This document shows, in pieces, positions 36,765 through 52,414 of a stretch of 64,000 nt of DNA. The position numbers and the translations under genes are program-made. Each line of letters begins with the position of its first letter. Position 1 is the stretch's first letter. The notes under the pieces are model-generated. The model was not told the origin of the DNA and made no database searches. It saw nothing but the letters and a program-made list of their open reading frames with translations. Source of the DNA: an uncultured cyanobacterium (lineage in GTDB: Bacteria > Cyanobacteriota > Cyanobacteriia > PCC-9006 > JAAUQQ01); contig OY970368.1 in the NCBI GenBank assembly GCA_963718615.1, positions 3,808,001 through 3,872,000 of the forward strand, in the 5' to 3' direction.

Positions 36765-37562
36765 CTATCCCGATTGTGAGGCTGGCTTGTGCTTCGCCAA
36801 CTTCAACGCCGATAACAGCAGGATCGTACCCAATATTAGATACAACAGAGAACTTGATACATACCTTAAAAGATTACTGCCAACAAATGCTCCCAAAATT
36901 GAACCAGATGCCATTGAAATGATAAATTTCTGCTCTGGTTTAACTTCCTTAAGTCTTTGTTGACTTCTGTATTTAAACAGACCCATCAAAATTGTTGGAA
37001 TGCTGATCGCAAGGCTCAAACTTCCTGCCAGCTTAATATCAACTGAAAACAGCAAAATAACTGTTGGGATAATCAACTCTCCACCTGCCACACCCAACAT
37101 ACTACTGAATATACCAATGATAATTCCTGCTAAAAATCCCAAGCTGACTCTTAAAAGATATGGTAATTGCAAACTCTCAAGACTGAAAGTGAGATTATGT
37201 CCTATCAAGACAACGCTCAAAAAAACCAGAAAAACTACAACGACTCTGTTCAATACTCGTTCGTTGATTCGAGTTGCATAATGAACTCCAACATAAGAGC
37301 CAATTAGAGAGCCTGCCAGAATGTTAACAATCACTGTCCAGTTCGCAGCAATATTTTCTAGTCCCACAATGCCGTTCCGAAAAATGAATGAAAATGTCAC
37401 TGTGACAAGACTGACAATGAGGTTGATGATAATTGACTGTAAAGTTCGATAGTTAAAAACGCTGACTAGAATGGGTAGGCGAAACTCTGCACCGCCCAAA
37501 CCAATTAGTCCACCAAGAACTCCAACCAAAGCACCCCAAGCAAACGCCCAAATATTTCGCAT
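36765..37562 (-). CDS. Sulfite exporter TauE/SafE (TSUP) family; probable gene cassette
   Basis: GGLIGLGGAEFRLP and GVAGGELIIP repeats; lies just after R' GTTATGC of the attC at 37696. Confidence 0.88.
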   Translation of the reverse strand: MRNIWAFAWGALVGVLGGLIGLGGAEFRLPILVSVFNYRTLQSIIINLIVSLVTVTFSFIFRNGIVGLENIAANWTVIVNILAGSLIGSYVGVHYATRINERVLNRVVVVFLVFLSVVLIGHNLTFSLESLQLPYLLRVSLGFLAGIIIGIFSSMLGVAGGELIIPTVILLFSVDIKLAGSLSLAISIPTILMGLFKYRSQQRLKEVKPEQKFIISMASGSILGAFVGSNLLRYVSSSLLYLILGTILLLSALKLAKHKPASQSG

Positions 37563-37786
37563 TCAGACCTCCACCTCTTATAGCAGCAAAATTATAAGCG
37601 ATTTACTTTGAGGCTGGGGTAGTCAACTTAACAGCACTTGATTCTGATTGCCTCACAGATAGCTCTCGTCTGCGCCTTCACCAGTAACCGAAGCCGCATA
37701 ACGGCCCCGTTCACCCGCCGCAGAAGCCTTGCGGTCTTAACGGCCAACTTAATACGGTCGGCGTGCCACGCAATTATGGGGGGACA

Positions 37787-38079
37787 GGGGAGAAGAAACA
37801 GGAAGAGACGACTATGCATTGGACGACACAGAGGATGTCTACTAACATACCGAATCGCTCATCCCTCTCCCATGCGCGAATTTGACAGAAGCGCATAAAG
37901 TCAAAAAAGGAGAGCATCTGCCAGCTTGTCGGGACGACTATGCAACGTTAGTCAGAAGATGACTACTAACCTATCGAATTGCCCGTCCAGCCAATCCAAT
38001 CGCATACCAACGAATCCTCAGGGAGCAGGGAAAGACCCTTGACCTAATCTCTTCGCTTTGCGTGGGTGGCAGACTCTCC
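37787..38079 (+). ncRNA. Predicted bridge/seek RNA with two target-binding loops and one donor-binding loop (copy 1)
   Basis: Repeated module GACGACTA-guide-hairpin-CTAAC at 37807 and 37933; closing stems GGGAGA/TCTCCC and GGAGAG..TCTGCCA/TGGCAGACTCTCC; donor guide CTCAGGG 38017-38023. Confidence 0.7.
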
Positions 38080-38108
38080 ATCCAACAAAATACCCCCAAT
38101 CTAACACA

Positions 38109-38543
38109 ATGAAACTCAACCTCAGCACAACCGTTTATGCTGCCTATATCGGCATTGATTGGGCAGACCGCAAACATGATATTGCTCTCTACGATTGCCA
38201 GAATGAGATCTGGGCACAATCCACTATTCAGGCCACCCCTCAGGCGGAGGAAATTGGCAAGCAACGTTGGGTCCATTGGCGTTGGTCTTGTCCTATCTTT
38301 CTGAGGCAAATTTTTGTCGAGTGGGTTACCCATGCTCGGTCTCGTTCGGTCTGGTCACAGGCATTTTATCAACAACAACGACTGGCGGGTAAATCCCATC
38401 AAAAGGCTATTCGTGCTTTGGCATATAAAGGGGGTCAGATTCTTTGGCGATGTTGGCAGGATAGGACTCCTTATGATGAGGAAAAGTATCTCGCTGCTCT
38501 CCGGCGCAAAAACTCTCCTTTGGTCGCTCTTTTACCGGATTAG
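38109..38543 (+). pseudogene. IS110 transposase with large in-frame internal deletion (144 aa)
   Basis: N-terminal YIGIDWADRKHD (first DEDD Asp) fused to C-terminal W.HWR.SC..FLRQ...A.RALA.K...ILWRCW. Confidence 0.88.
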
Positions 38544-38746
38544 TTCTCTATCTTGTTGCTCGATTGAACTGCTTTAGGTTTTGAACCAATCGAATACAAA
38601 AAATACGCAGATGGCTCTGATAGACCAGTTCGGCTGAGACTCAAAACTGACTATTAGGGGGTTTGCGCTGGCTTCAATTCGCTCAGATATTACATCAGAG
38701 TTATTTTTGATATTCTCTATTGACCCCGTCCGCCTCAAGGCCTATG

Positions 38747-39862
38747 TTAGGCACGGGGCTGTTGTTGTGTGGTGCAGTGTATGCCACCACCGCCAGCAGC
38801 GATCGCATCAATATTTAGCTGGACAACATCGCGATCAGGGAATAGATCTTGCAAAGTCGCTTTTGCTTTTTCATCAGCGATGACATTGCCAAACTCTGGC
38901 GCGATGACAGCGCCATTGACCACATAGAAATTGATATAACCTGCGGCAAAATCAGCACTTTTAAACTTGGGACGAATGCTGGTGGGACTTTCAAGGACAG
39001 CCACTTCTAGTTTATGACCATCCGCATCCGTCTCAGACCGCAGAATCTCTAGGTGCTTTTGAGTAACAGCATGGTCGAACGAGGCTGGATCGGGATCATA
39101 TCCAGCAATGACAGTCCCTGGACGCGCAAAGCGGGAATAAAAGTCAGTATGACCATCTGTAATATCTTGCCCTCGGATACCAGGTAACCAAATGATCTTG
39201 CGGAGTCCCAGAAGTGGCTTGAGTAGTGTTTCACACTCAGCTTTAGCCATTCCAGGATTACGATTTTCGTTGAGGACACAGCTTTCGGTGATGATTGCTG
39301 TCCCCTTACCATCCACTTCAATCCCACCACCTTCTAGGACTAACTTAGTATTAATAGCCTGAACACTAGATTTCTGAATGACAAATTCAGCGACTTTTGC
39401 ATCATGGTCATGATCTTGCTTCTGACCCCAACCATTGAAGTTAAAATCAATTCCACCTAAATATCCACGACTATCTTTCACAAAAACAGGACCAGTATCA
39501 CGTATCCACAGGTCATCTAAAGCCGAAACAACCATATCTACAGATGAACCGCATTTTCGGACAGCTATCTCGTAATCTTCTTGTCGAACTAGCATGGATA
39601 CAGGCTCATAGCGAGCGATCGCTTTAGCAATAGTTGCTAGATTGTTTTGCACTTCAGAAAGCAACTTTTGTCCCCAAATGGCACGACTTGCACCAAAAGC
39701 CATCCAAGTACGATCATGAGGCTCTGATTCGTCAGGCATCAACCAAGTCGTTTCCTGTGTTCCCACGGCTTCAGAGTCACTACAACCCAAAACATTGTGC
39801 ACGATCATCGCTCCTGAACAACCTGCCATAAATTGAATCAGTGATCGTCGATTCATGATCAA
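38747..39862 (-). CDS. Agmatine/peptidylarginine deiminase family with Tat-like signal; gene cassette
   Basis: WIRDTGP, LEGG, TDGHTD, GYINF, GGGIHCTTQQQP; MNRRSLIQF N-terminus; stop codon inside attC R''. Confidence 0.93.
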   Translation of the reverse strand: MIMNRRSLIQFMAGCSGAMIVHNVLGCSDSEAVGTQETTWLMPDESEPHDRTWMAFGASRAIWGQKLLSEVQNNLATIAKAIARYEPVSMLVRQEDYEIAVRKCGSSVDMVVSALDDLWIRDTGPVFVKDSRGYLGGIDFNFNGWGQKQDHDHDAKVAEFVIQKSSVQAINTKLVLEGGGIEVDGKGTAIITESCVLNENRNPGMAKAECETLLKPLLGLRKIIWLPGIRGQDITDGHTDFYSRFARPGTVIAGYDPDPASFDHAVTQKHLEILRSETDADGHKLEVAVLESPTSIRPKFKSADFAAGYINFYVVNGAVIAPEFGNVIADEKAKATLQDLFPDRDVVQLNIDAIAAGGGGIHCTTQQQPRA

Positions 39863-39934
39863 CCTATTAACTCAAGGTAATCATGGTAACAGTTCCTGGG
39901 GGATTTTCACGAGGTGAATAGGCAGAATGATTCG

Positions 39935-40000
39935 GCATAACACTCCCAAATTCGGTACTTAGATAGAATCTTTTCTCATAACACACCGCTCAAGCCGAAT
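39935..40000 (-). other. Cassette 5' boundary (GTTATGC) with attI-like degenerate 41-bp periodic units
   Basis: CATAAC at 39936 and 39977; CATAAC-N12-GGTAC resembles GATAAC-N11-GGTAT units at 51350-51563; no attC hairpin partner seen. Confidence 0.45.
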
Positions 40001-40344
40001 AGCCAGAATCTTTCGGCATGTTTTCAGGTTTCTTATGGAAATAACTGCGTGTATTTTTGAATACCTAATGCGTTTATTTATCTCTGTCGAGAAGGGCAAT
40101 GCTGAATGAGGATCTACTCATCGCTAAGGACGTTCGAATTCACTCCTCGATCGTCCTCCTTCTCTCAAAAAGAACGATCGCCCCTTCTAAAGACAGTTCA
40201 TCTGAATGCATCATCTCCGCGCCTCAAGACAGATTTGTTCAGGATGAACTTTAGGTTCTATCTAAAGATGGACGGTCTGAGAGGGCTGACTTTTTAGAGT
40301 TCTTTTAGCTGACATACCCAATTTATCGATCGTCGTATCGCTTT

Positions 40345-41526
40345 ATGTTTAGTCAGCATTTAACTCAGCTATTCTCACGCAAGGATTTCAGGCATGATTT
40401 CAGGCATATTGGTATGACTATAGCTTTGATTCTCGATCGCCCGATCACTGGGATCTCAAAAATGTTGCAGTCTTCTGCTCAAACTGCCCATTACACCAAG
40501 GCAGAAGAGCAATTTATTCAGCTTCTGAGAACTAAAAACCTAGATCAACGGGTGAACTCCCAACCTGAGCTAACTGGCGATTTTTCAGCAACGCTTACCG
40601 ATGCTTTAGCAATTGCTTACTCAGAGTCCTCAACATCTGATGCTGTAGAGTCCGCACAGCTATTTCTGCAACGTATTCTCTACCAAATTAATCGGCTTAA
40701 CTTTTTTTGGTATAGCGACTTGTTGCAGTACGAAAATGAGCGTTCTTCCTATTTGCAACAGGTACGCGACAGCATTGAAGCCGTGTGGCAACCCTGGGAA
40801 CTAGCCCAACTCAATGTTGAGCAGCTGCAAAAACTGGATGTCAAACAAGCGTTGATCGATCGCTGCGAAGCTGATTTGCAGCCTCCTTTGTCCGAAAGCA
40901 AACGCTACATTCAAGAGCAGATGACGCTAGAAGGATATCGCCACCTGATCGCGATCGCTTCTCTAGATGGACTAGTAGAATCTAGCCGCCTTTGCAACAT
41001 TTTAGGAGGTGCCAGTAACGAAATTCAGGCAACGCTGATTCGAGTGCTGATCGAAGAGTATGGGAATGGACGCTTGCCCCGAAAGCATTCCACCTTCTTT
41101 GCTCAAATGATGAGGGAACTAGAGCTGCATTCTGAACCTGAAACCTATTTGGATCTCGTTCCCTGGCAAGTTTTGGCTTGTATTAACCACAACTTCCTAC
41201 TAACCGAACGCAAGCGCCATTTCCTACGCTACATTGGCGGATTTACCTACTTTGAAATTGTCGGGCCGTCTATCTATCGAGACTACATGAAAGCGGCTCA
41301 GCGGTTAAATCTTTCAGATACCGCAATGGGATATTGGGAGCTACACATTCGGGAAGATGAACGACACGGACAATGGATGCTTCACGATGTTGCGCTAGCT
41401 CTGGCAGATCAGTATCCAGAGCAGGCTTGGGAGCTCGTACTGGGCTATGAGCAAGATAAATGGATGGGCGATCGTGCTGGCAAAGCGATCTTTCAAATGA
41501 TTCAACAAGCTGAGCACTCTTCCTGA
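40345..41526 (+). CDS. Heme-oxygenase-like iron-containing redox enzyme
   Basis: EEYGNG...H, FE, YWELHIREDERHG di-iron type motifs; start may be downstream (40414 or 40462). Confidence 0.88.
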   Translation: MFSQHLTQLFSRKDFRHDFRHIGMTIALILDRPITGISKMLQSSAQTAHYTKAEEQFIQLLRTKNLDQRVNSQPELTGDFSATLTDALAIAYSESSTSDAVESAQLFLQRILYQINRLNFFWYSDLLQYENERSSYLQQVRDSIEAVWQPWELAQLNVEQLQKLDVKQALIDRCEADLQPPLSESKRYIQEQMTLEGYRHLIAIASLDGLVESSRLCNILGGASNEIQATLIRVLIEEYGNGRLPRKHSTFFAQMMRELELHSEPETYLDLVPWQVLACINHNFLLTERKRHFLRYIGGFTYFEIVGPSIYRDYMKAAQRLNLSDTAMGYWELHIREDERHGQWMLHDVALALADQYPEQAWELVLGYEQDKWMGDRAGKAIFQMIQQAEHSS

Positions 41527-41598
41527 GTTTATTTGCTTTGTCTCCGGAGGCGCTGATGGTCCTCCTCATTTCTTCATTCCTAAAACTGGACTTTTCTT

Positions 41599-42342
41599 AT
41601 GAAAGAAGCTTTACTGAGCGCTGGTAATGCAGCCACAGCCTATTCACCCAACCAAGTGTTTCTCTGCCCCGAAGAATCTCAGTTTTATTCTCAATGCATT
41701 GAGAAAATGGTTGCTTATCATTGCACCCCCGCTGACTCAGTAGTTGAGTTTGGTGCTGGAGAAGGTAGCCCAGTGATCAACTGCTTGTTGAAAACTAAAT
41801 TTGATGCGTTCATTCAAGGCTATGAGCTAAATCCTGCTGCTTGTGAGCTGGCAAATTCTAGAATCGAACAGTATCAGCTAAAGCACAAGTATAAAGTTCA
41901 TAACAAGTGTTTCTTCAACAATTTCTCTGTTTATGCAAATTACCTGATTGCAAATCCCCCTTACCTTCCTGCACCTGATGACGACCTTTACATGCCTACT
42001 TTGCATGGTGGAACTGACGGTGCAACGATTACCAAAAGACTATTATCAGTAGGATGTGAAAGCCTACTGCTGATGGTCTCGGCATATTCTAATCCCATTG
42101 AAACAATCGAGTATGCTGCTGCTGAAGGCTATCAAGTGACGGATTTCATGGTTTCACCTCTACAATTTGGTTACTATAGCCGTGAACCCAAAGTGAGAGA
42201 CGCGATCGCAGAGCTTCGCACTCAACGTAAGGCATTTTATTCTAAAAACATCTACTTTCTTGCCGGTGTATTATTCCAAGAGAGAAACCGCTCTAGACCG
42301 GATTTATCTACAGAGTTGCTAAAGATAATGACGGCTCTGTAA
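41599..42342 (+). CDS. Class I SAM-dependent methyltransferase
   Basis: VEFGAGEG motif I, ANPPYLP motif IV. Confidence 0.88.
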   Translation: MKEALLSAGNAATAYSPNQVFLCPEESQFYSQCIEKMVAYHCTPADSVVEFGAGEGSPVINCLLKTKFDAFIQGYELNPAACELANSRIEQYQLKHKYKVHNKCFFNNFSVYANYLIANPPYLPAPDDDLYMPTLHGGTDGATITKRLLSVGCESLLLMVSAYSNPIETIEYAAAEGYQVTDFMVSPLQFGYYSREPKVRDAIAELRTQRKAFYSKNIYFLAGVLFQERNRSRPDLSTELLKIMTAL

Positions 42343-42377
42343 AACACAGCTCTCTATTTCATAGCTTCCAAGCTTCA

Positions 42378-42500
42378 TCACTCATGGGCTTGATTCCGTA
42401 TCCCAAACAATGCCATAGTCTACACCGAAGTAGTTATGAATCAATCGATCGGGTATTCCAGCCATAGCCCGCCATTCAATGGCATCGTATTTTAACGTAA
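42378..42500 (-). pseudogene. HepT/DUF86 toxin fragment
   Basis: Minus strand reads KYDAIEWRAMAGIPDRLIHNYFGVDYGIVWD; no N-terminus; RX4H arginine appears replaced by Pro. Confidence 0.75.
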
Positions 42501-42620
42501 CCCATCTGGTAACTGTTTGAGCTTAGGGTGGCGATCGCCCTCAACCAAACCAAACCTTGCCTCTACCAAATCCGAATCAATAATTTGATATAGTGACTCA
42601 AATCAGCGGCGGCAGATTAT

Positions 42621-42652
42621 GTGGTTGGGTTTCTTTCGTCAACCCAACCTAC
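42621..42652. repeat. REP-like palindrome
   Basis: GGTTGGGTT-TCTTTCGTC-AACCCAACC followed by TAC. Confidence 0.55.
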
Positions 42653-42808
42653 AGGCGAACAATCGCACTTCACTCCTACTTTAGATCAGCCTATCTCAAC
42701 CTGTAGACCCATGTTTTTCCCCACCCTTCTCTCTATAGTTAAAATGAACACTATTTTGCAACATTTTGAAAATGGGTTAGTGGTAATAATTCGCAGGGAG
42801 AATAGACT

Positions 42809-43519
42809 ATGTTTTTTCACAAAAAAGAACTCATCCACAAGGTTGAGATTAAGGAAGCAAATCCTCGATATGCTCAACTGCTGCTAGAACAGTTTGGTGG
42901 CGCTACAGGAGAGCTTTCTGCGGCATTGCAATATTGGGTGCAGTCCTTCCATGTTGAGAATGCAGGGATACGCGATATGCTACAAGACATTGCGATCGAA
43001 GAATTTAGCCATCTCGAAATGGTGGGCAAACTCATCGAAGGGCATACCAAGAATGTTGATCAAACAGAAGCATTCAAAAGCACACTATTTGCTGTGCGGG
43101 GAGCCGGCCCTCATTTTCTAGACAGCCAGGGCAGTGCGTGGACTGCAAGCTATCTGAATGAGGGAGGTGATGTTGTGCGCGACCTCAGAGCAAACATTGC
43201 CGCAGAAGCCGGGGCACGCCAGACTTACGAAGAACTGATCAAGTTAGCTACTGATGAAGGAACCAAACAAACGTTAGTTCATCTGTTAACGCGGGAAATT
43301 TCTCACACCAAGATGTTCATGAAAGCTTTGGAGTCGTTGGGCAAATTGGACGAGCCATTTTTCGGCAATATTCAACCTGACGAGACCGTTAATCTTTACT
43401 TCAACTTGTCCTCTAATGGAGAGAAAGATGAGCGTGGTCCCTGGAATTCCGATGAGAACTTTGAGTACATCGCAGATCCTTTTAAACAGGGCAAAGCTCC
43501 AGCTCAACGCGAAGCTTAA
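42809..43519 (+). CDS. katB: Manganese catalase (KatB-like)
   Basis: EQFGG..GELSAALQY, EEFSHLE, ANIAAE..A, REISH. Confidence 0.93.
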   Translation: MFFHKKELIHKVEIKEANPRYAQLLLEQFGGATGELSAALQYWVQSFHVENAGIRDMLQDIAIEEFSHLEMVGKLIEGHTKNVDQTEAFKSTLFAVRGAGPHFLDSQGSAWTASYLNEGGDVVRDLRANIAAEAGARQTYEELIKLATDEGTKQTLVHLLTREISHTKMFMKALESLGKLDEPFFGNIQPDETVNLYFNLSSNGEKDERGPWNSDENFEYIADPFKQGKAPAQREA

Positions 43520-43559
43520 ACAAAACTAGGGTAGCGCGTTTTAGACCTGTGGAGGCGAC

Positions 43560-43650
43560 CTTGGTACCGCTGTTTACCTGCCCCAGAGCAATCGGGCTTG
43601 ACTACATCATCCCCATTACAATTTGGGCAAAGTAGAAGTTCTAAAAGCAT
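43560..43650 (-). pseudogene. IS1-like InsA zinc-ribbon remnant
   Basis: MLLELLLCPNCNGDDVVK...GKQRY. Confidence 0.6.
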
Positions 43651-43742
43651 ACGTCGATTGAGGAGAAATAACCTGTCCAAAGGCTCCCTTATCTCCACAT
43701 GTCTAGAAAACCATATCAACTTAAAACTTTGTCTTTGGAGCA

Positions 43743-43813
43743 ACTTAACTGTAACTCGGCGGCAAGAATAACCGATAGCCCTAAAGAACGTCCTGTGCAA
43801 GCGGTGGTTAGGC
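43743..43813 (-). other. Degenerate attC of the 338-aa cassette
   Basis: R'' GCCTAAC (43807-43813) matches the cassette start GTTAGGC; L''-like GTGCAAGC on plus strand; R'/L' arm eroded. Confidence 0.55.
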
Positions 43814-43879
43814 AGTCTCAAGAAGACACGAGAAAGCTCATAGTTATGTTTTCTAAAGATGTCTATGGTAGTACATAAC

Positions 43880-44896
43880 TTAGGATGGAAGGTGCAGGGG
43901 AATATAGAGTCGTCGAGCGAGTTCTGGGAATCGGTCACGATCTGCCACGATGAAAAACCCATATTCCCCATTTTCGTGATAACCCGTGCCAAAGCGGAAG
44001 GCTTGCTCTCGTCGATCGATTCTGTCCATTAACTGATTGAAGTGATTAATTACTGCCTCGACATCCATCCAGGTGCCTCTGCAATCTGCTCCAAACTGAT
44101 ACGTTTCGCCATTAAGCATGTACTGCACAACCCAATGAGAATCCAGATCGCTGAAAACGCCAATTCCTTCAGAGCGTTGATCGGAGATCAAGAATTGCGT
44201 CGTTGTTCCGTCAGGATTTCGCATGGAGAGTTCAGTCGTCCCGCTCACATTCTTAAACCGCTTTTCTTCTCCTATAAATTGTGAAATACTATTCAGACAA
44301 ATAGGAGAATTTGTTGATTTAGCAAGATCCCTGAAAAGCTCATCATGCCGAGGTTCAAAACCTATATCACGTAGGCTTGCATAGACCACCCGTTGCCCGA
44401 ATAGTTCATAAATGATGTTGATATGGTCATGCAGTATTAAGGCTGGGTTCTGAATCCACGAGTTAATTATTTCGATAGACTCTGCTGTCCATTGCTCAAC
44501 GATTCCAGCTACTTGCAGCATTTGCGAAACATGAGTAGCTATATGCCCCTCTTCATGCCACCTAAACATTAGACGATGCCAAGGATGCGATTGCGCTAGT
44601 GTTTCAGGTCTTCTACAACCATATTTCAGCAGGGTATAGGCCAGAAAGTGCCCAGCATAGTCAGTGGGATGATCCACTAAAGCATCTCTTAAAGCATTGA
44701 CAAGATTTTGGTCTGCTGCCCAGGTTCCATGCTTATAGATGTCTTCGCTATGTACTTTATACGCGCGATTTGAAAGCTCTATGCAAACCTCATAAACGCG
44801 GCCAACCTCATCATTTTCATCTCGAAAATGGTGTCGGTCATACCATCCAAGCAATTTGAAAAGCTCTTGGGTACTGGGCTTAAAATCGTTAGGCAT
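43880..44896 (-). CDS. Hypothetical protein, gene cassette
   Basis: 338-aa ORF between attC R' (44927) and R'' (43807); no recognised motif. Confidence 0.8.
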   Translation of the reverse strand: MPNDFKPSTQELFKLLGWYDRHHFRDENDEVGRVYEVCIELSNRAYKVHSEDIYKHGTWAADQNLVNALRDALVDHPTDYAGHFLAYTLLKYGCRRPETLAQSHPWHRLMFRWHEEGHIATHVSQMLQVAGIVEQWTAESIEIINSWIQNPALILHDHINIIYELFGQRVVYASLRDIGFEPRHDELFRDLAKSTNSPICLNSISQFIGEEKRFKNVSGTTELSMRNPDGTTTQFLISDQRSEGIGVFSDLDSHWVVQYMLNGETYQFGADCRGTWMDVEAVINHFNQLMDRIDRREQAFRFGTGYHENGEYGFFIVADRDRFPELARRLYIPLHLPS

Positions 44897-45019
44897 CAGT
44901 CAATGTTACCCTCTGTCGGGAGTTAAGCCTAACGTTGCCCCTCACCCGCCGCCAATCACACCTGCATCAAACCGATCAATTTTCGGCGGTCGGTGTGCAT
45001 GGGCGTTTATGGGGGGACG

Positions 45020-45313
45020 GGGGAGAAGAAACAGGAAGAGACGACTATGCATTGGACGACACAGAGGATGTCTACTAACATACCGAATCGCTCATCCCTC
45101 TCCCATTCGCGAATTTGACAGAACCGCATAAAGTCAAGAAAGGAGAGAATCTGCCAGCTAGTCGGGACGACTATGCAGCGCCAGTCAGAAGATGACTACT
45201 AACATATCGAATCGCCCGTCCAGCCAATCCAATCGCGTACCGACGAATCCTCAGGGAGTAGGGAAAGACTCTTTCCATAATCTCTTCGCTTTGCGAGCGG
45301 GGGCAGACTCTCC
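45020..45313 (+). ncRNA. Predicted bridge/seek RNA with two target-binding loops and one donor-binding loop (copy 2)
   Basis: Guides TGCATTG/CTAACAT (45048, 45075), TGCAGCG/CTAACAT (45174, 45199), donor guides CTCAGGG/CCATAAT (45250, 45275). Confidence 0.72.
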
Positions 45314-45342
45314 ATCCAACAAAACACCCTCAATCTAGCACA

Positions 45343-45777
45343 ATGAAACTCAACCTCAGCACAACCGTTTATGCTGCCTATATCGGCATTGATTGGGCAG
45401 ACCGCAAACATGATATTGCTCTCTACGATTGCCAGAATGAGATCTGGGCACAATCCACTATTCAGGCCACCCCTCAGGCGGAGGAAATTGGCAAGCAACG
45501 TTGGGTCCATTGGCGTTGGTCTTGTCCTATCTTTCTGAGGCAAATTTTTGTCGAGTGGGTTACCCATGCTCGGTCTCGTTCGGTCTGGTCACAGGCATTT
45601 TATCAACAACAACGACTGGCGGGTAAATCCCATCAAAAGGCTATTCGTGCTTTGGCGTATAAAGGGGGTCGGATTCTTTGGCGATGTTGGCAGGATAGGA
45701 CTCCTTATGATGAGGAAAAGTATCTCGCTGCTCTCCGGCGCAAAAACTCTCCTTTGGTCGCTCTTTTACCGGATTAG
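45343..45777 (+). pseudogene. IS110 transposase with the same in-frame internal deletion as copy 1
   Basis: 144 aa, one visible substitution (Q/R) versus copy 1. Confidence 0.88.
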
Positions 45778-46363
45778 TTCTCTATCTTGTTGCTCGATTG
45801 AACTGCTTTAGGTTTTGAACCAATCGAATACGAAAAATACGAAGATGGCTCTGATAGCTCAGTTCGGCTGATACTCAAAACTGACTATAAGGGGGTTTGC
45901 GCTGGCTTCAATTCGCTCGGATATTACATCAGAGTTATGTTGTATCTTCTCTATTGACCCCGTCCGGCTCAGGGCCTATGTTAGGCACTACATCTACAAA
46001 CAACTGACAACATAAGTTAGCCAAGATCTGAAAGCATAGGAGTTCATCATAAGCAGGGGGTTGAGCATGCAGCCAGACTACTTTTTTCTACTTGAAACCT
46101 ATTTTATTTGACTAGCTTCAATTTTCCCTGCTTCTGTCAATTGCCATGCTGACTTTGAACCCCTAAGTTCTGGTACTCTTTCCAGAAGCCCATTTGTTAG
46201 ACGACAATAGCATTGGCGGCTGCTCGACATTTCCTGGCGGGAGTTGTCGCGAAAGCGTGGCTTGGATCGTGAGACAGACGTGAGACTTTGACAGCTCACT
46301 GGCGTGGCGATCGACAAAAAAAGACACTCATAGGGTCCCCCTGGAAAGAAAGGACTCTAACGA

Positions 46364-48154
46364 GTGTCGAGAGTAATAATGTATCAACAGCGAGTGTACA
46401 TGAATGCAAAGGAGCATGGCCTGTCGCAGCAAGATGCGGCAGCGGTGGCGGAATTTTCGGTGCGAACCGCGCAACGAATGGATGCCAACGAGTGGCAGCA
46501 GGGGAGTGGAGAGGGCACCGGGGTGCGGACCCGGCCAGATCCACTCAACGGTCTTTGGGAAGCCGAACTAGAGGCGATGCTGCGAGCTGAGCCAAGACTG
46601 AAACCGACGACGTTATTTGAGCATTTGCAGGACAAATATCCGGGTCAATATCCGCAAGTGCTCAGGACGCTTCAGCGGCGAGTGAGAACCTGGAAAGCAC
46701 TGTATGGTCCAGCTCCCGAGGTGATGTTTGAGCTGCGTCACGAGCCGGGGGTGCAAGGATTTTCCGACTTCACCGAACTCAAAGGGACGGTGGTGACGAT
46801 AAATGGAAAGCCCTATGAGCACTTGATTTATCACTACCGCTTGGGCTACAGCGGCTGGTCCTACGCGGAGTTAATCGAGGGGGGTGAAAGCTTTGTCGCC
46901 CTATCCGAAGGATTGCAGAATGCCCTGTTTGCCTGCGGCGGGGCTCCAAAGCAGCATCGCACCGATAGCCTGAGTGCGGCCTATCGAAATCTGGGTGGGA
47001 AGAAGACCAAACCGCTGACGCGCTTGTATGACGACCTGTGTGAGCACTATCGGTTGCAACCGACGCGAAACAACCGGGGAATCGCCCACGAGAACGGTTC
47101 TATTGAAGGCCCCCACGGTCATCTGAAGAACCGCATTGTCCAAGCGATGTACCTGCGCGGCAGCACCGACTTCGCTAGCGTCAGCGACTATCAAGACCTG
47201 CTCAATGACTGTGTGGCCAAGCTCAATGCCCAGCATCAGGATAAGTATGAGCATGAGAAAGCGCATCTCCAGGCGTTGCCCAAATACCGGGCTGCGGACT
47301 ACGAACTCCTCACCGCCAAGGTGAGCAGCAACAGCACGATTGATATCCGCTGCATGCTCTACAGCGTGCCGTCTCGCTTAATTGGCCGGTCCCTGGAAGT
47401 GCATCTGCACCACAACCGCCTGATGGGCTACCTCGAAGGCCATGAAGTGTTCAGGTTGAAACGGATTCGTTCTACTGACAAGGACAAGCGGCGCGCCCGC
47501 TCGGTGGACTATCACCATGTCATCGAAGGGTTGCGCAAAAAGCCCTTGGCCTTCCTCCACAGCACCTGGCGAGAGGACCTCCTGCCCAATGAGCGCTATC
47601 ACCAACTCTGGAAACAGCTCCAGGCTGGCTTTGAGCTTGATTCTGCCGCCGTGCTCATGGTCGAAGCCCTCTATATTGCGGCGACCCAAAACAAGGAAGC
47701 GGCGGTCGCTGACTACCTCTTCCCAGAGATTGAGGCCAAAACCCTCACCCTCTCAAGGCTCAGACTCCATTTTCAGTTGCTCACCAAACTCGAATTCCCC
47801 ACCGTGAATGTCCAACAACATGACCTCAACGACTACGATGCCCTTCTGTTCACCCACAGCAGCGTCATCCCAGATGCAGAACCAGAGCTCGTCTCAACCG
47901 GAGCTGAGCCCTTACCAAAGCCTCAGCGCTCAGCTCAAGCACCTGCGCTTATCCCATATGCTCAACCACTGGGAGACCTTGGAGCAGCAAGCCATGCGAG
48001 AGACCTGGTCCTACGCGCAATTTCTCTTGGCCCTGTGCCAACTCGAAACAGACCGCCGCAAGGCTTTGCGCCTCCAAAGAGCCATCACCGAAGCTCAACT
48101 GCCCAACGCCAAAACGGTTTCCAATTTCGATTGGACACACCTGCCCCTGGTTAA
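46364..48154 (+). CDS. istA: IS21 transposase IstA
   Basis: SDFT, HRTDSL, HENGSIE DDE triad; YSVPSRLIG. Confidence 0.95.
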   Translation: MSRVIMYQQRVYMNAKEHGLSQQDAAAVAEFSVRTAQRMDANEWQQGSGEGTGVRTRPDPLNGLWEAELEAMLRAEPRLKPTTLFEHLQDKYPGQYPQVLRTLQRRVRTWKALYGPAPEVMFELRHEPGVQGFSDFTELKGTVVTINGKPYEHLIYHYRLGYSGWSYAELIEGGESFVALSEGLQNALFACGGAPKQHRTDSLSAAYRNLGGKKTKPLTRLYDDLCEHYRLQPTRNNRGIAHENGSIEGPHGHLKNRIVQAMYLRGSTDFASVSDYQDLLNDCVAKLNAQHQDKYEHEKAHLQALPKYRAADYELLTAKVSSNSTIDIRCMLYSVPSRLIGRSLEVHLHHNRLMGYLEGHEVFRLKRIRSTDKDKRRARSVDYHHVIEGLRKKPLAFLHSTWREDLLPNERYHQLWKQLQAGFELDSAAVLMVEALYIAATQNKEAAVADYLFPEIEAKTLTLSRLRLHFQLLTKLEFPTVNVQQHDLNDYDALLFTHSSVIPDAEPELVSTGAEPLPKPQRSAQAPALIPYAQPLGDLGAASHARDLVLRAISLGPVPTRNRPPQGFAPPKSHHRSSTAQRQNGFQFRLDTPAPG

Positions 48155-51644: not shown

Positions 51645-52414
51645 ATGCAAACCCAGCCCCCCAAGCTTCTAGATCAAGTCCGTGTGGCCCTACGACTCAA
51701 GCACTATTCCTGCAAAACAGAGCAAACTTACGTTCAGTGGATTCGGCGTTACATTCTGTTTCACAACAAGCGCCATCCCAAGGACATGGGCGTGACCGAA
51801 GTGGAAGCCTTCTTGACCCATCTCGCGGTTCAAGAACGGGTTGCTGCCTGCACGCAAAACGTTGCCTTTAGCGCCTTGCTCTTCCTCTATCGTGAAATTC
51901 TTCAACAACCCTTCGAAAATGTTCAGGCTCTCCGAGCAAAGCCTTCGCGCTATCTACCTACGGTACTGACTCCCGAAGAAGTCCGCCAAATCATGCGACA
52001 TCTTTCCGGTGAATGTCGCCTCGTGATTCAAATTCTCTACGGAAGTGGATTGCGGATTAGTGAAGCACTTCGACTCAGAGTTAAAGACGTAGATTTTGGT
52101 CAGCACCAGATTGTTGTGCGAGATTCTAAGGGGCAAAAGGGCCGGGTAACACCGCTGCCCGATCGCATCATCAAGCCTCGTGCCCTTCAGGATGCCGTTG
52201 GTTCTGCTGGTATTCACAAGAAAGTCAGTTGCCACACCTTCCGCCACAGCTTCGCCACCCACCTGCTGCATTGATTTGTTTTTATGGGGCATACGACATC
52301 CGCACCGTCCAAGAACTGTTGGGCCACAAAGATGTTAAGACAACCATGATCTACACCCATGTCCTCAATCGCGGCGGACGAGGCGATCGCAGCCCGCTAG
52401 ACCATAATTTTTAG
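51645..52414 (+). pseudogene. intI: Integron integrase with internal deletion and frameshift
   Basis: [48 protein letters not shown]; [25 protein letters not shown]...SPLD in another frame; divergent from cassettes. Confidence 0.93.

Follow-up and report, generated by a model that had tools for sequence, protein, structure and literature searches.

A predicted bridge RNA with two target-binding loops in an attC-targeting IS110-family element of filamentous cyanobacteria

The bridge RNAs of IS621 and of the IS110 group of insertion sequences (IS) (Durrant et al. 2024, PMC11208160; Hiraizumi et al. 2024, PMC11208158) have so far been described with one target-binding loop (TBL) and one donor-binding loop (DBL). 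Whether a natural bridge RNA can carry two target loops is the question raised by an IS110-family element at 37775-38745 of a 64,000-nucleotide stretch (hereafter the window) of DNA from an uncultured cyanobacterium (GenBank assembly GCA_963718615.1, contig OY970368.1, positions 3,808,001 to 3,872,000). An initial annotation, made from the sequence alone, had read the non-coding left end of this element as a bridge-RNA gene with two tandem target loops aimed at integron attC sites, and knew of no description of such an architecture. A search of article full texts, with supplementary tables outside its scope, found no natural bridge RNA or seekRNA with two target loops described, in agreement with that statement. 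From sequence comparison, the region is probably the bridge-RNA gene of an attC-targeting IS110-family IS of filamentous cyanobacteria, with three loops and two target guides.

Anatomy of the predicted RNA

The left end (LE) of the element in the window, here called copy 1, is a 334-nt non-coding stretch that runs up to the ATG at 38109. A module is present in it twice, 126 nt apart, just as annotated: GACGACTA occurs at 37807-37814 and again at 37933-37940, followed by the variable 7-mers TGCATTG (37815-21) and TGCAACG (37941-47) and by CTAACAT from 37842 and CTAACCT from 37966. The parts of the LE are as follows.

37775-38108, +, LE, predicted bridge-RNA gene; begins TATGGGGGGAC; ATG follows at 38109
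37801-37864, +, module M1, predicted target-binding loop 1; outer stem GGAAGAGACGA / TCGCTCATCC
37815-37822, +, putative M1 left guide TGCATTGG
37825-37839, +, M1 inner hairpin; GACA/TGTC at 37825-28/37836-39
37842-37850, +, putative M1 right guide with core/handshake part, CTAACATAC
37909-37922 and 38068-38079, +, 5' arm GGAGAGCATCTGCC and 3' arm GGCAGACTCTCC of a long-range helix around M2 and the donor loop
37930-37985, +, module M2, predicted target-binding loop 2, in the canonical place beside the donor loop
37941-37948, +, putative M2 left guide TGCAACGT
37951-37963, +, M2 inner hairpin; GTCA/TGAC at 37951-54/37960-63
37966-37974, +, putative M2 right guide CTAACCTAT
38011-38056, +, predicted donor-binding loop; CGAA/TTCG closing stem and inner hairpin
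38016-38023, +, putative left donor guide CCTCAGGG; CTCAGGG at 38017-38023
38041-38048, +, right donor guide position, GACCTAAT in copy 1; consensus TCCATAAT, the reverse complement of ATTATGGA

M1 and M2 share the order GACGACYA, 8-mer, short hairpin, UA-CUAACAUAU and CGNNUCGC, and the closing stem of each extends into GACGA/UCGC words. The donor loop is built on the same plan, with ACGAAU-CCUCAGGG, a hairpin, UUCCAUAAU and CUYUUCGC. The repeat of M1 in M2 is recovered when the region is compared with the window by blastn (75% identity over 60 nt, E 4.3e-4), and it is kept in homologues from other genomes. The long-range helix was predicted by RNAalifold and is present also in the single-sequence fold.

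Conservation and covariation of the fold

The fold was tested on 29 aligned left ends with two modules, in which 45 pairs were scored. RNAalifold recovered the stems of M2, those of the donor loop and the long-range helix enclosing both; it mispaired the M1 region with the start of the LE, and this part was replaced by an M1 stem modelled on M2. In the resulting structure 92.9% of cells pair, compared with 40-52% after the 3' partners have been shifted by 1-3 columns; for the M1 stem this percentage leans to the favourable side, because the stem was derived from the same sequences. Changes on both sides occur in 19 pairs, against 9.5±1.8 in shuffled alignments, and none of 500 shuffles reaches any of the five pairing measures. 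Compensatory changes affect 9 of the 11 pairs of the long-range helix and 2 of the 10 pairs of the M1 outer stem, which is the least supported helix. The fold and homologue covariation proposed as a check in the initial annotation thus came out in its favour, and the stem that it drew around each module holds across homologues.

The constant parts of M1 and M2 have a column entropy of 0.03-0.32 and the strands of the donor loop one of 0.14-0.18, against 0.98-1.25 in the linkers; since the constant parts lie so far below the linkers, both modules are under purifying selection. The M2 8-mer is TGCAGCGC in 15 of the 29 aligned elements, and 11 different M2 8-mers occur among them. Both the anatomy of M1, M2 and the donor loop and the conservation of that anatomy stand on solid ground.

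The attC target and the left guides

The element is flanked by the two halves of an imperfect palindrome, RYYYAAC...GTTRRRY, of the kind found in integron attC sites. At copy 1 these are:

37696-37774, +, left part of the interrupted attC, bottom-strand reading; built as in uninterrupted attC-like sites in the genome
37696-37702, +, attC inverse core GCATAAC; stem CACCCGCCGC...GGTCGGCG
37764-37771, +, attC L'' box TGCCACGC; AAT (37772-37774) then the element
38746-38752, +, attC R'' box GTTAGGC; its reverse complement gives the TAA stop of the cassette open reading frame (ORF) 39862->38750

Because the TAA that ends this cassette ORF lies in the reverse complement of GTTAGGC, the plus strand is the bottom strand of attC and the element lies between L'' and R''; the box and strand labels first given to the site are therefore correct. 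Uninterrupted sites in the genome read ..GGTCGGTG-TGCATGGG-CGTT-GTTAGAC or ..TGCAACGG-GATT-GTTAGAC. The attC sites carry an extra TGC on the arm beside GTTAG, and their assignment was made from the palindrome form, the cassette ORFs and the presence of the integrase IntI.

There is a likeness between the 8-mer that follows GACGACYA and the L'' box, which stands 1-4 nt ahead of the junction. Over 37 unique insertion events at all module-bearing loci, the mean best match is 6.46/8, compared with 5.67±0.14 after permutation, and it was reached in 0 of 20,000 permutations; these and the following permutations ignore the relatedness of elements and hosts. Two sets of events at two-module elements were examined, one of 41 and one of 49, the latter adding the copies in genome G018 and a second, divergent IS in the genome that holds the window (G000, whose contig is labelled C1 in the coordinates below); in the larger set a remnant with M1 alone ('DIVmini') was given the M2 guide of its full-length relative. 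M1 matches the flank in at least 7 of 8 positions, and better than M2, in 19/41 events (expected 9.3±1.9; 0/20,000 permutations) and in 20/49 (expected 8.7±2.0; 0/10,000 permutations). M2 matches at least 6 of 8 positions, and better than M1, in 17/41 (expected 10.6; p 0.003) and in 19/49 (expected 13.1; p 0.018). Only 8 of the 49 events have neither loop above 5/8, against 20.9 expected (0/10,000 permutations).

Individual sites point to M2 as well. Exact 8/8 matches between M2 and the flank occur at L036, where the word CGCAACCA is unusual, and at L057 and L092, and M2 guides with TCCAAC accompany TCCAA-class flanks in 7/9 events compared with 4/32 others (Fisher p 4e-4; counted per lineage, 5/7 versus 3/14, p 0.04). 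In the genome of Leptothermofonsia sp. ETS-13, copies of one IS species occupy both kinds of site, one copy an M1-like site (7/8) and three copies M2-like sites (6/8). The divergent IS of G000 has TGCATCGC in M1 and TCCAACGA in M2; one remnant (L210) stands at a TGCATCGC site (8/8 to M1) and the full copy at a TCCAGCCG site of the TCCA class. Both loops thus appear to be used within a single IS species in these two cases. Overall, the flanks give good support to M1 as a guide and only modest support to M2, whose use is plausible. The guide-versus-flank covariation named earlier as a check is accordingly present for M1 and for all loops pooled, and for M2 by itself it is seen at the looser threshold and not at the stricter one of 7/8; in the same way, the claim of two target loops with different left guides is well supported for M1 and modestly for M2.

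The original case rested in part on copies 1 and 2. Its 6/7 likeness of the 7-mers to L'' boxes (TGCATGG at the copy 2 site, TGCCACG at the copy 1 site) is correct. For M2 of copy 1 against its own flank this is weak evidence, since copy 1 is decayed and the ancestral M2 word also matches in 6/8; the 7-mer TGCAACG, taken to be programmed, is TGCAGCG in the full-length copy and in copy 2, and is probably a product of decay.

Donor loop, junctions and core

The third loop reads as a donor loop because it matches the element's own right end (RE): CCUCAGGG is the RE sequence 5 nt inside the end. The annotated identity of its CTCAGGG with the RE holds for copy 2 and the full-length copy and is one mismatch short in copy 1. 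Moreover, CTCAGAG is found in the loop of 4/4 elements whose RE has CTCAGAG; these four form one clade, so that the covariation counts as one event.

At L070:1133-1190 (Leptothermofonsia sp. ETS-13) an LE abuts the RE remnant of a related element (..cctcagaggcgat|TATGGGG). The joint, ..GGCGAT|TATGGGG, is head-to-tail, like a circle junction fixed in the chromosome. Judged by this joint, joined ends would read ..CTAT+TATGG.., and CCAUAAU is complementary to the ATTATGG that would span such an RE-LE joint. The RE also has TTGACC, 17 nt and TAT, which together with the TAT of the LE would give a -10 hexamer TATTAT; this is a match to consensus, and a T-TGAC motif is conserved in the REs of the listed homologues.

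At left junctions the last two bases of the target (TT, GT or AT) are retained before TATGG, and right junctions always read CTAT|GTTAG. These junctions fit top-strand cleavage after a two-base core, which would be AT on the donor side and NT on the target side. Of the 9 bases at the post-exchange junction, 8 pair with the invariant CUAACAUAU; of the empty site, only TGTTAG does. CTAACAT had been taken as the complement of an empty target ATGTTAG; empty attC sites in the genome read ..TT|GTTAG, the AT comes from the element's RE, and the string therefore complements the right junction after insertion. TAT as a duplicated target core was considered and dropped: 0/3 genome hits to T[GC]CA..TATGTTA are attC-like, and empty sites have TT before GTTAG.

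Element copies and transposase

Copies 1 and 2 in the window lack about 830 bp that a full-length copy elsewhere in the genome carries. The main features are:

37775-38745, +, copy 1, internally deleted IS110-family element, 971 bp, between the attC L'' and R'' boxes
45008-45988, +, copy 2, the same deleted element, 96% identical to copy 1; attC L'' box TGCATGGG
G000:C1:2245200-2247009, outside the window, full-length copy, 1,810 bp, 421-aa transposase
38109-38543, +, remnant transposase ORF of copy 1, 144 aa; residues 1-46 fused to ~324-420 of the 421-aa protein
37782-37790, +, LE subterminal inverted repeat GGAC(A)GGGG
38544-38745, +, RE; terminal TAT at 38743-38745
38720-38725, +, RE -35-like TTGACC
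38724-38731, +, RE subterminal repeat CCCCGTCC
38733-38740, +, RE left-donor sequence CCTCAAGG; CCTAT next

The element starts with TATGGGG and ends with ..CTAT, as established from 10 copies or fragments in the genome and about 40 homologous loci, and the words after its end are GTTAGGC, GTTATGC, GTTAGAC and similar. LEs with all three loops are 334-335 nt long and REs about 202-209 nt. Subterminal repeats of 8 bp stand 7 nt inside the LE (GGACGGGG) and 14 nt inside the RE (CCCCGTCC) of the full-length copy; the left one has an extra A in copy 1, compared with copy 2 and the full-length copy.

The 421-aa transposase has the DEDD (PF01548, E 2.2e-27) and Tnp (PF02371, E 4.6e-16) domains and passes the NCBIfam model NF033542, 'IS110 family RNA-guided transposase' (176 bits; cut-off 140), which bears out the family assignment made at the outset. 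Its closest solved relative is IS621, with similarity confined to the C-terminal domain (E 3e-10). The deletion in copy 1 removes most of the DEDD domain and the core of the Tnp domain; as its ORF joins residues 1-46 to ~324-420, copy 1 is non-autonomous. It is a dead, decayed derivative, whose M2 left guide is TGCAACGT instead of the TGCAGCGC of copy 2 and the full-length copy; it would be mobile only with transposase, and probably also RNA, supplied by the full-length copy. Copy 2 retains the consensus M2 and the consensus donor loop. A distant blastn search of PLSDB with 37700-38800 gave no match.

Relatives and the number of loops

A protein-seeded scan of species-representative genomes gave 62 loci; nearly all are from cyanobacteria, Leptolyngbyaceae and their neighbours, and a few, at about 50% identity, are proteobacterial. 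A pattern scan of metagenomes matched 119 stretches; among the 80 of these that were listed, 21 were kept, and the others were dropped as lacking a module (56, taken as chance matches), as duplicates (L113, same contig as L024; L155, same contig as L043) or as lying at a contig end (one). The combination of LE start and M1 occurs in 2 of the 401 cyanobacterial genomes sampled, namely the present one and G018, which has eight copies.

Both modules are present in most relatives, at a spacing of about 125 nt. Nine loci (L020, L035, L038, L045, L058, L066, L040, L047 and L063) have one module, with a plain 5' stem-loop in the place of M1. In a tree of 25 transposases (left from 37 proteins after 12 with in-frame stops were removed; midpoint-rooted, with the proteobacterial rows across the root), single-loop lineages branch first and the two-loop elements form one clade (support 97/96). 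The single-loop L020 lies inside this clade and is, on this tree, a secondary loss.

Several loci depart from the usual form. At L030:1068-1507 about 100 nt are inserted in the 3' strand of M1, directly after CTAACATAT, and M2 and the donor loop are intact. At L210 (G000:C1:1920899-1920973, minus strand) the LE is cut in or just after M1 and joined to R'' (..CTAACATA|TGTTAGC, a 14-nt palindrome), and L083 is a mini-remnant whose LE is broken at M1 and joined as ..GCATG|TTAGCC; both look like microhomology or element-mediated deletions. In G018, three copies of the related IS (L209, L213 and L218) have left flanks that are identical over 40 nt and unlike attC (..ccccgatgtgatggt|TAT); either the IS is carried by a larger repeated unit, or a non-attC site is preferred.

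Proposed mechanism and alternative explanations

We infer transcription, protein binding and the use of both loops from the comparisons above. Transcription would start from a promoter that forms anew where the ends meet in the circle (-35 TTGACC in the RE, 17 nt, TAT+TAT), and with such a promoter M1 would be the first structured part of the transcript. The RNA would fold into three protein-binding internal loops, M1 at the 5' side, M2 and the donor loop, with the long-range helix closing the latter two. The 8-nt left guide of a target loop (T[G/C]CANNNN, sense) would read the attC L'' box on the bottom strand, and the invariant right guide CUAAC would read GTTAG in the R'' box. Next to it, AUAU is a better partner for the post-exchange ..CTAT|GTTAG than for the empty site, a handshake-like feature. 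The donor loop would read the circle junction by CCUCAGGG, sense to the RE, and by CCAUAAU at the RE-LE joint. Each target loop would be loaded on its own recombinase dimer, as for IS621. Since the two target loops have different left guides, the element could enter two attC sequence classes, and a second loop would need no new principle because either one could load a dimer and find its class.

Several observations weigh against this proposal. At the stricter threshold of at least 7/8, M2 matches its flanks in 4/41 events (expected 3.4; p 0.47) and in 4/49 (expected 4.6; p 0.73), not above permutation; its signal rests on the looser 6/8 matches and on one flank class, and the disregard of relatedness in the permutations counts here too. 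Many natural flanks are poorly matched by both guides (the 8/49 events at or below 5/8), none of the 6 distinct sites in G018 reaches 7/8, and neither loop fits the flanks of L026, L073 and L070. Between the end of the left-guide match and the proposed core lie 0-2 nt, with a junction distance that varies from 1 to 4 nt, unlike in IS621, whose guide is contiguous with the core, and neither the core nor any target duplication is fixed by sequence alone. Copy 1 itself departs from the consensus in the M2 right guide (CTAACCTAT for CTAACATAT), in the M2 closing stem (U for C), in the right guide of the donor loop (GACCTAAT for TCCATAAT) and in the RE (CTCAAGG, compared with CTCAGGG in copy 2 and the full-length copy). 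Finally, a search of Rfam (E up to 1) with window positions 37000-47000 gave no match, and a search for sequencing runs as RNA evidence listed four, the best with a word share of 0.04.

The weakness of M2 at the strict threshold suits an explanation in which only one module, M1 or M2, is a guide, and the other is a recombinase-binding scaffold that replaces the 5' stem-loop, or a regulator or decoy that titrates the recombinase. M1 does occupy the place of the plain 5' stem-loop of single-loop relatives, and the prevalence of TGCAGCGC in M2 (15/29 elements) could reflect a constraint unrelated to guiding. However, both modules have the full right-guide string CTAACATAT and the same loop geometry, the 8-mers of M2 differ among lineages, the 8/8 flank matches and the TCCAAC/TCCAA association involve M2, and the M2-equivalent loop of single-loop relatives matches flanks (L063 8/8, L045 7/8). 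We regard a single guide as unlikely, though worth keeping in mind. A division of labour between two RNAs is more doubtful still: M1 might be released as a TBL-only RNA, or act like one, for direct top-strand transfer, and M2 with the donor loop as the bridge RNA of the circle pathway. M1 indeed lies outside the long-range helix, and for CazIS110-1 the first step of transfer is reported to be supported by an abundant TBL-only RNA (Sun et al. 2025 preprint, 10.1101/2025.10.25.684509), but the M1-M2 linker has no match to a promoter or a terminator, and such a scheme refines the two-loop explanation more than it excludes it.

Each module could also act as DNA, as a mimic of an attC half-site that binds the transposase or the integron integrase, or as a remnant of a captured attC. 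An L''-like word beside the complement of the R'' core is target-like, and the LE fragments of G000 (1920899-1920973) and L083 are broken inside M1 and joined to GTTAG. Against this, 19 pairs show compensatory changes that preserve the stems, a hallmark of a single strand that folds; the guide words have the orientations known from bridge RNAs, sense for the left one and antisense for the right one; and the protein family is RNA-guided. We consider a role as DNA highly improbable. Taking these points together, we lean, by a modest measure, towards a natural two-unit guide array in one clade, with two independently evolving target loops and one donor loop.

Integron context and neighbouring genes

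The integron setting given in the initial annotation is confirmed. The genome has an intact IntI at G000:C1:948656-949594 (TIGR02249, 443.8 bits; cut-off 265) and several degraded integrases elsewhere, one of them in the window; copies or fragments of the IS lie near every integrase remnant (944668, 1918129, 4716679). The neighbouring genes are:

51666-52405, +, degraded integron integrase gene; TIGR02249 pieces 1-171, 243-274 and 264-314, all below cut-off
39862->38750, -, cassette ORF of the PAD_porph family, 371 aa (PF04371, E 6e-108)
36768-37562, -, TauE/SafE-type exporter gene, on the other side of copy 1

The cassette ORF, which encodes a Porphyromonas-type peptidyl-arginine/agmatine deiminase, is unusually large for a cassette gene. 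The integrated RE and its flank give TTGACC, 17 nt and TATGTT (38720-38748, +), an outward promoter-like site by consensus match only, which points antisense into this ORF. Just past the R'' box, ACGGGGCTGTT (38753-38770, +) resembles the reverse complement of AACGGCCCCGT, found after the inverse core (37700-37710), and because of this likeness copy 1 may stand in an attC that has been rearranged or is nested. A palindrome-based attC finder returned one irrelevant site, and a looser half-site regular expression returned 70 hits, mostly noise, among them two TGCAGC-class sites near the second integron.

Comparison with known systems

In its general plan the element resembles IS621. Both have a DEDD and Tnp recombinase and a guide RNA in a long LE (here predicted), which in IS621 lies downstream of an RE-LE junction promoter (PMC11208160) and here would follow a candidate for one, with internal loops, a sense left guide, an antisense right guide and a separate donor loop, and the extension of the right guide fits the exchanged strand, as in the handshake described for IS621 (PMC11208158). 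According to the same source, a synaptic complex of IS621 takes its TBL and its DBL from two different RNAs, with each loop on its own recombinase dimer, and separate loop RNAs function in vitro. The present element differs in having two target loops instead of one, the first in place of the 5' stem-loop, a transposase of 421 aa instead of 328 aa, and an 8-bp subterminal inverted repeat. Its left guide has 8 nt, with a gap of 0-2 nt to the proposed core, which would be AT (donor) and NT (target) instead of CT, and its right guide does not vary, being aimed at a conserved attC box.

The second group to be compared, for which Post & Hall 2009 is a further reference, is that of the IS1111-attC elements (ISPst6, ISKpn4, ISPa25 and relatives). 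These have a seekRNA, transposases of 330-350 aa and an RNA downstream of the gene that encodes the transposase; in this RNA the top-strand match precedes the bottom-strand match (Siddiquee et al. 2024, PMC11187229). Common to both are a DEDD transposase, orientation-specific insertion into attC and a short RNA matching both target strands (here predicted), and subterminal inverted repeats are shared with the IS1111 group (criterion 7-17 bp; 8 bp here). The precedent of attC-targeting IS1111 elements, to which the initial annotation appealed, fits poorly in other respects: the element is not of IS1111 type, which by the published criterion has its longer non-coding region downstream of the transposase gene (PMC11187229, PMC11208160), and it is set apart from IS1111 by the length of its transposase (421 aa versus 330-350 aa). 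Here the predicted RNA is encoded upstream, its bottom-strand (sense) guide precedes the other one, there are two target loops and the hosts are cyanobacteria.

CazIS110-1 has a TBL-only RNA and integrates mainly by top-strand transfer (10.1101/2025.10.25.684509), and the target's dinucleotide at our left junctions, with the donor's AT at the right, would fit top-strand transfer too. As the preprint has it, the extra TBL there is a truncated product of a single loop, whereas here a second loop with its own putative guide is encoded.

If two target loops are indeed used, one transposon would address two sequence classes of the variable L'' boxes, a natural multiplexing of RNA-guided recombination in which a single RNA can stack target loops as portable cassettes. 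The conserved two-loop form would show that loop number is evolvable and that one recombinase and donor system can be aimed at several sites, which bears on multiplexed bridge editing, and the loci would form a natural data set in which left guides drift and the right guide stays fixed on a conserved box. CRISPR and TIGR arrays likewise place several guides of one build in tandem for one effector. The likeness is one of analogy only: the present array has two units, which are structured loops with two guide halves and not processed spacers, and no acquisition mechanism is implied for it. Within the IS110 family, the element would represent a cyanobacterial lineage that splits attC between R'' and L''. 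As this lineage is separate from the proteobacterial IS1111-attC group, the targeting of attC by RNA-guided insertion sequences would have arisen at least twice.

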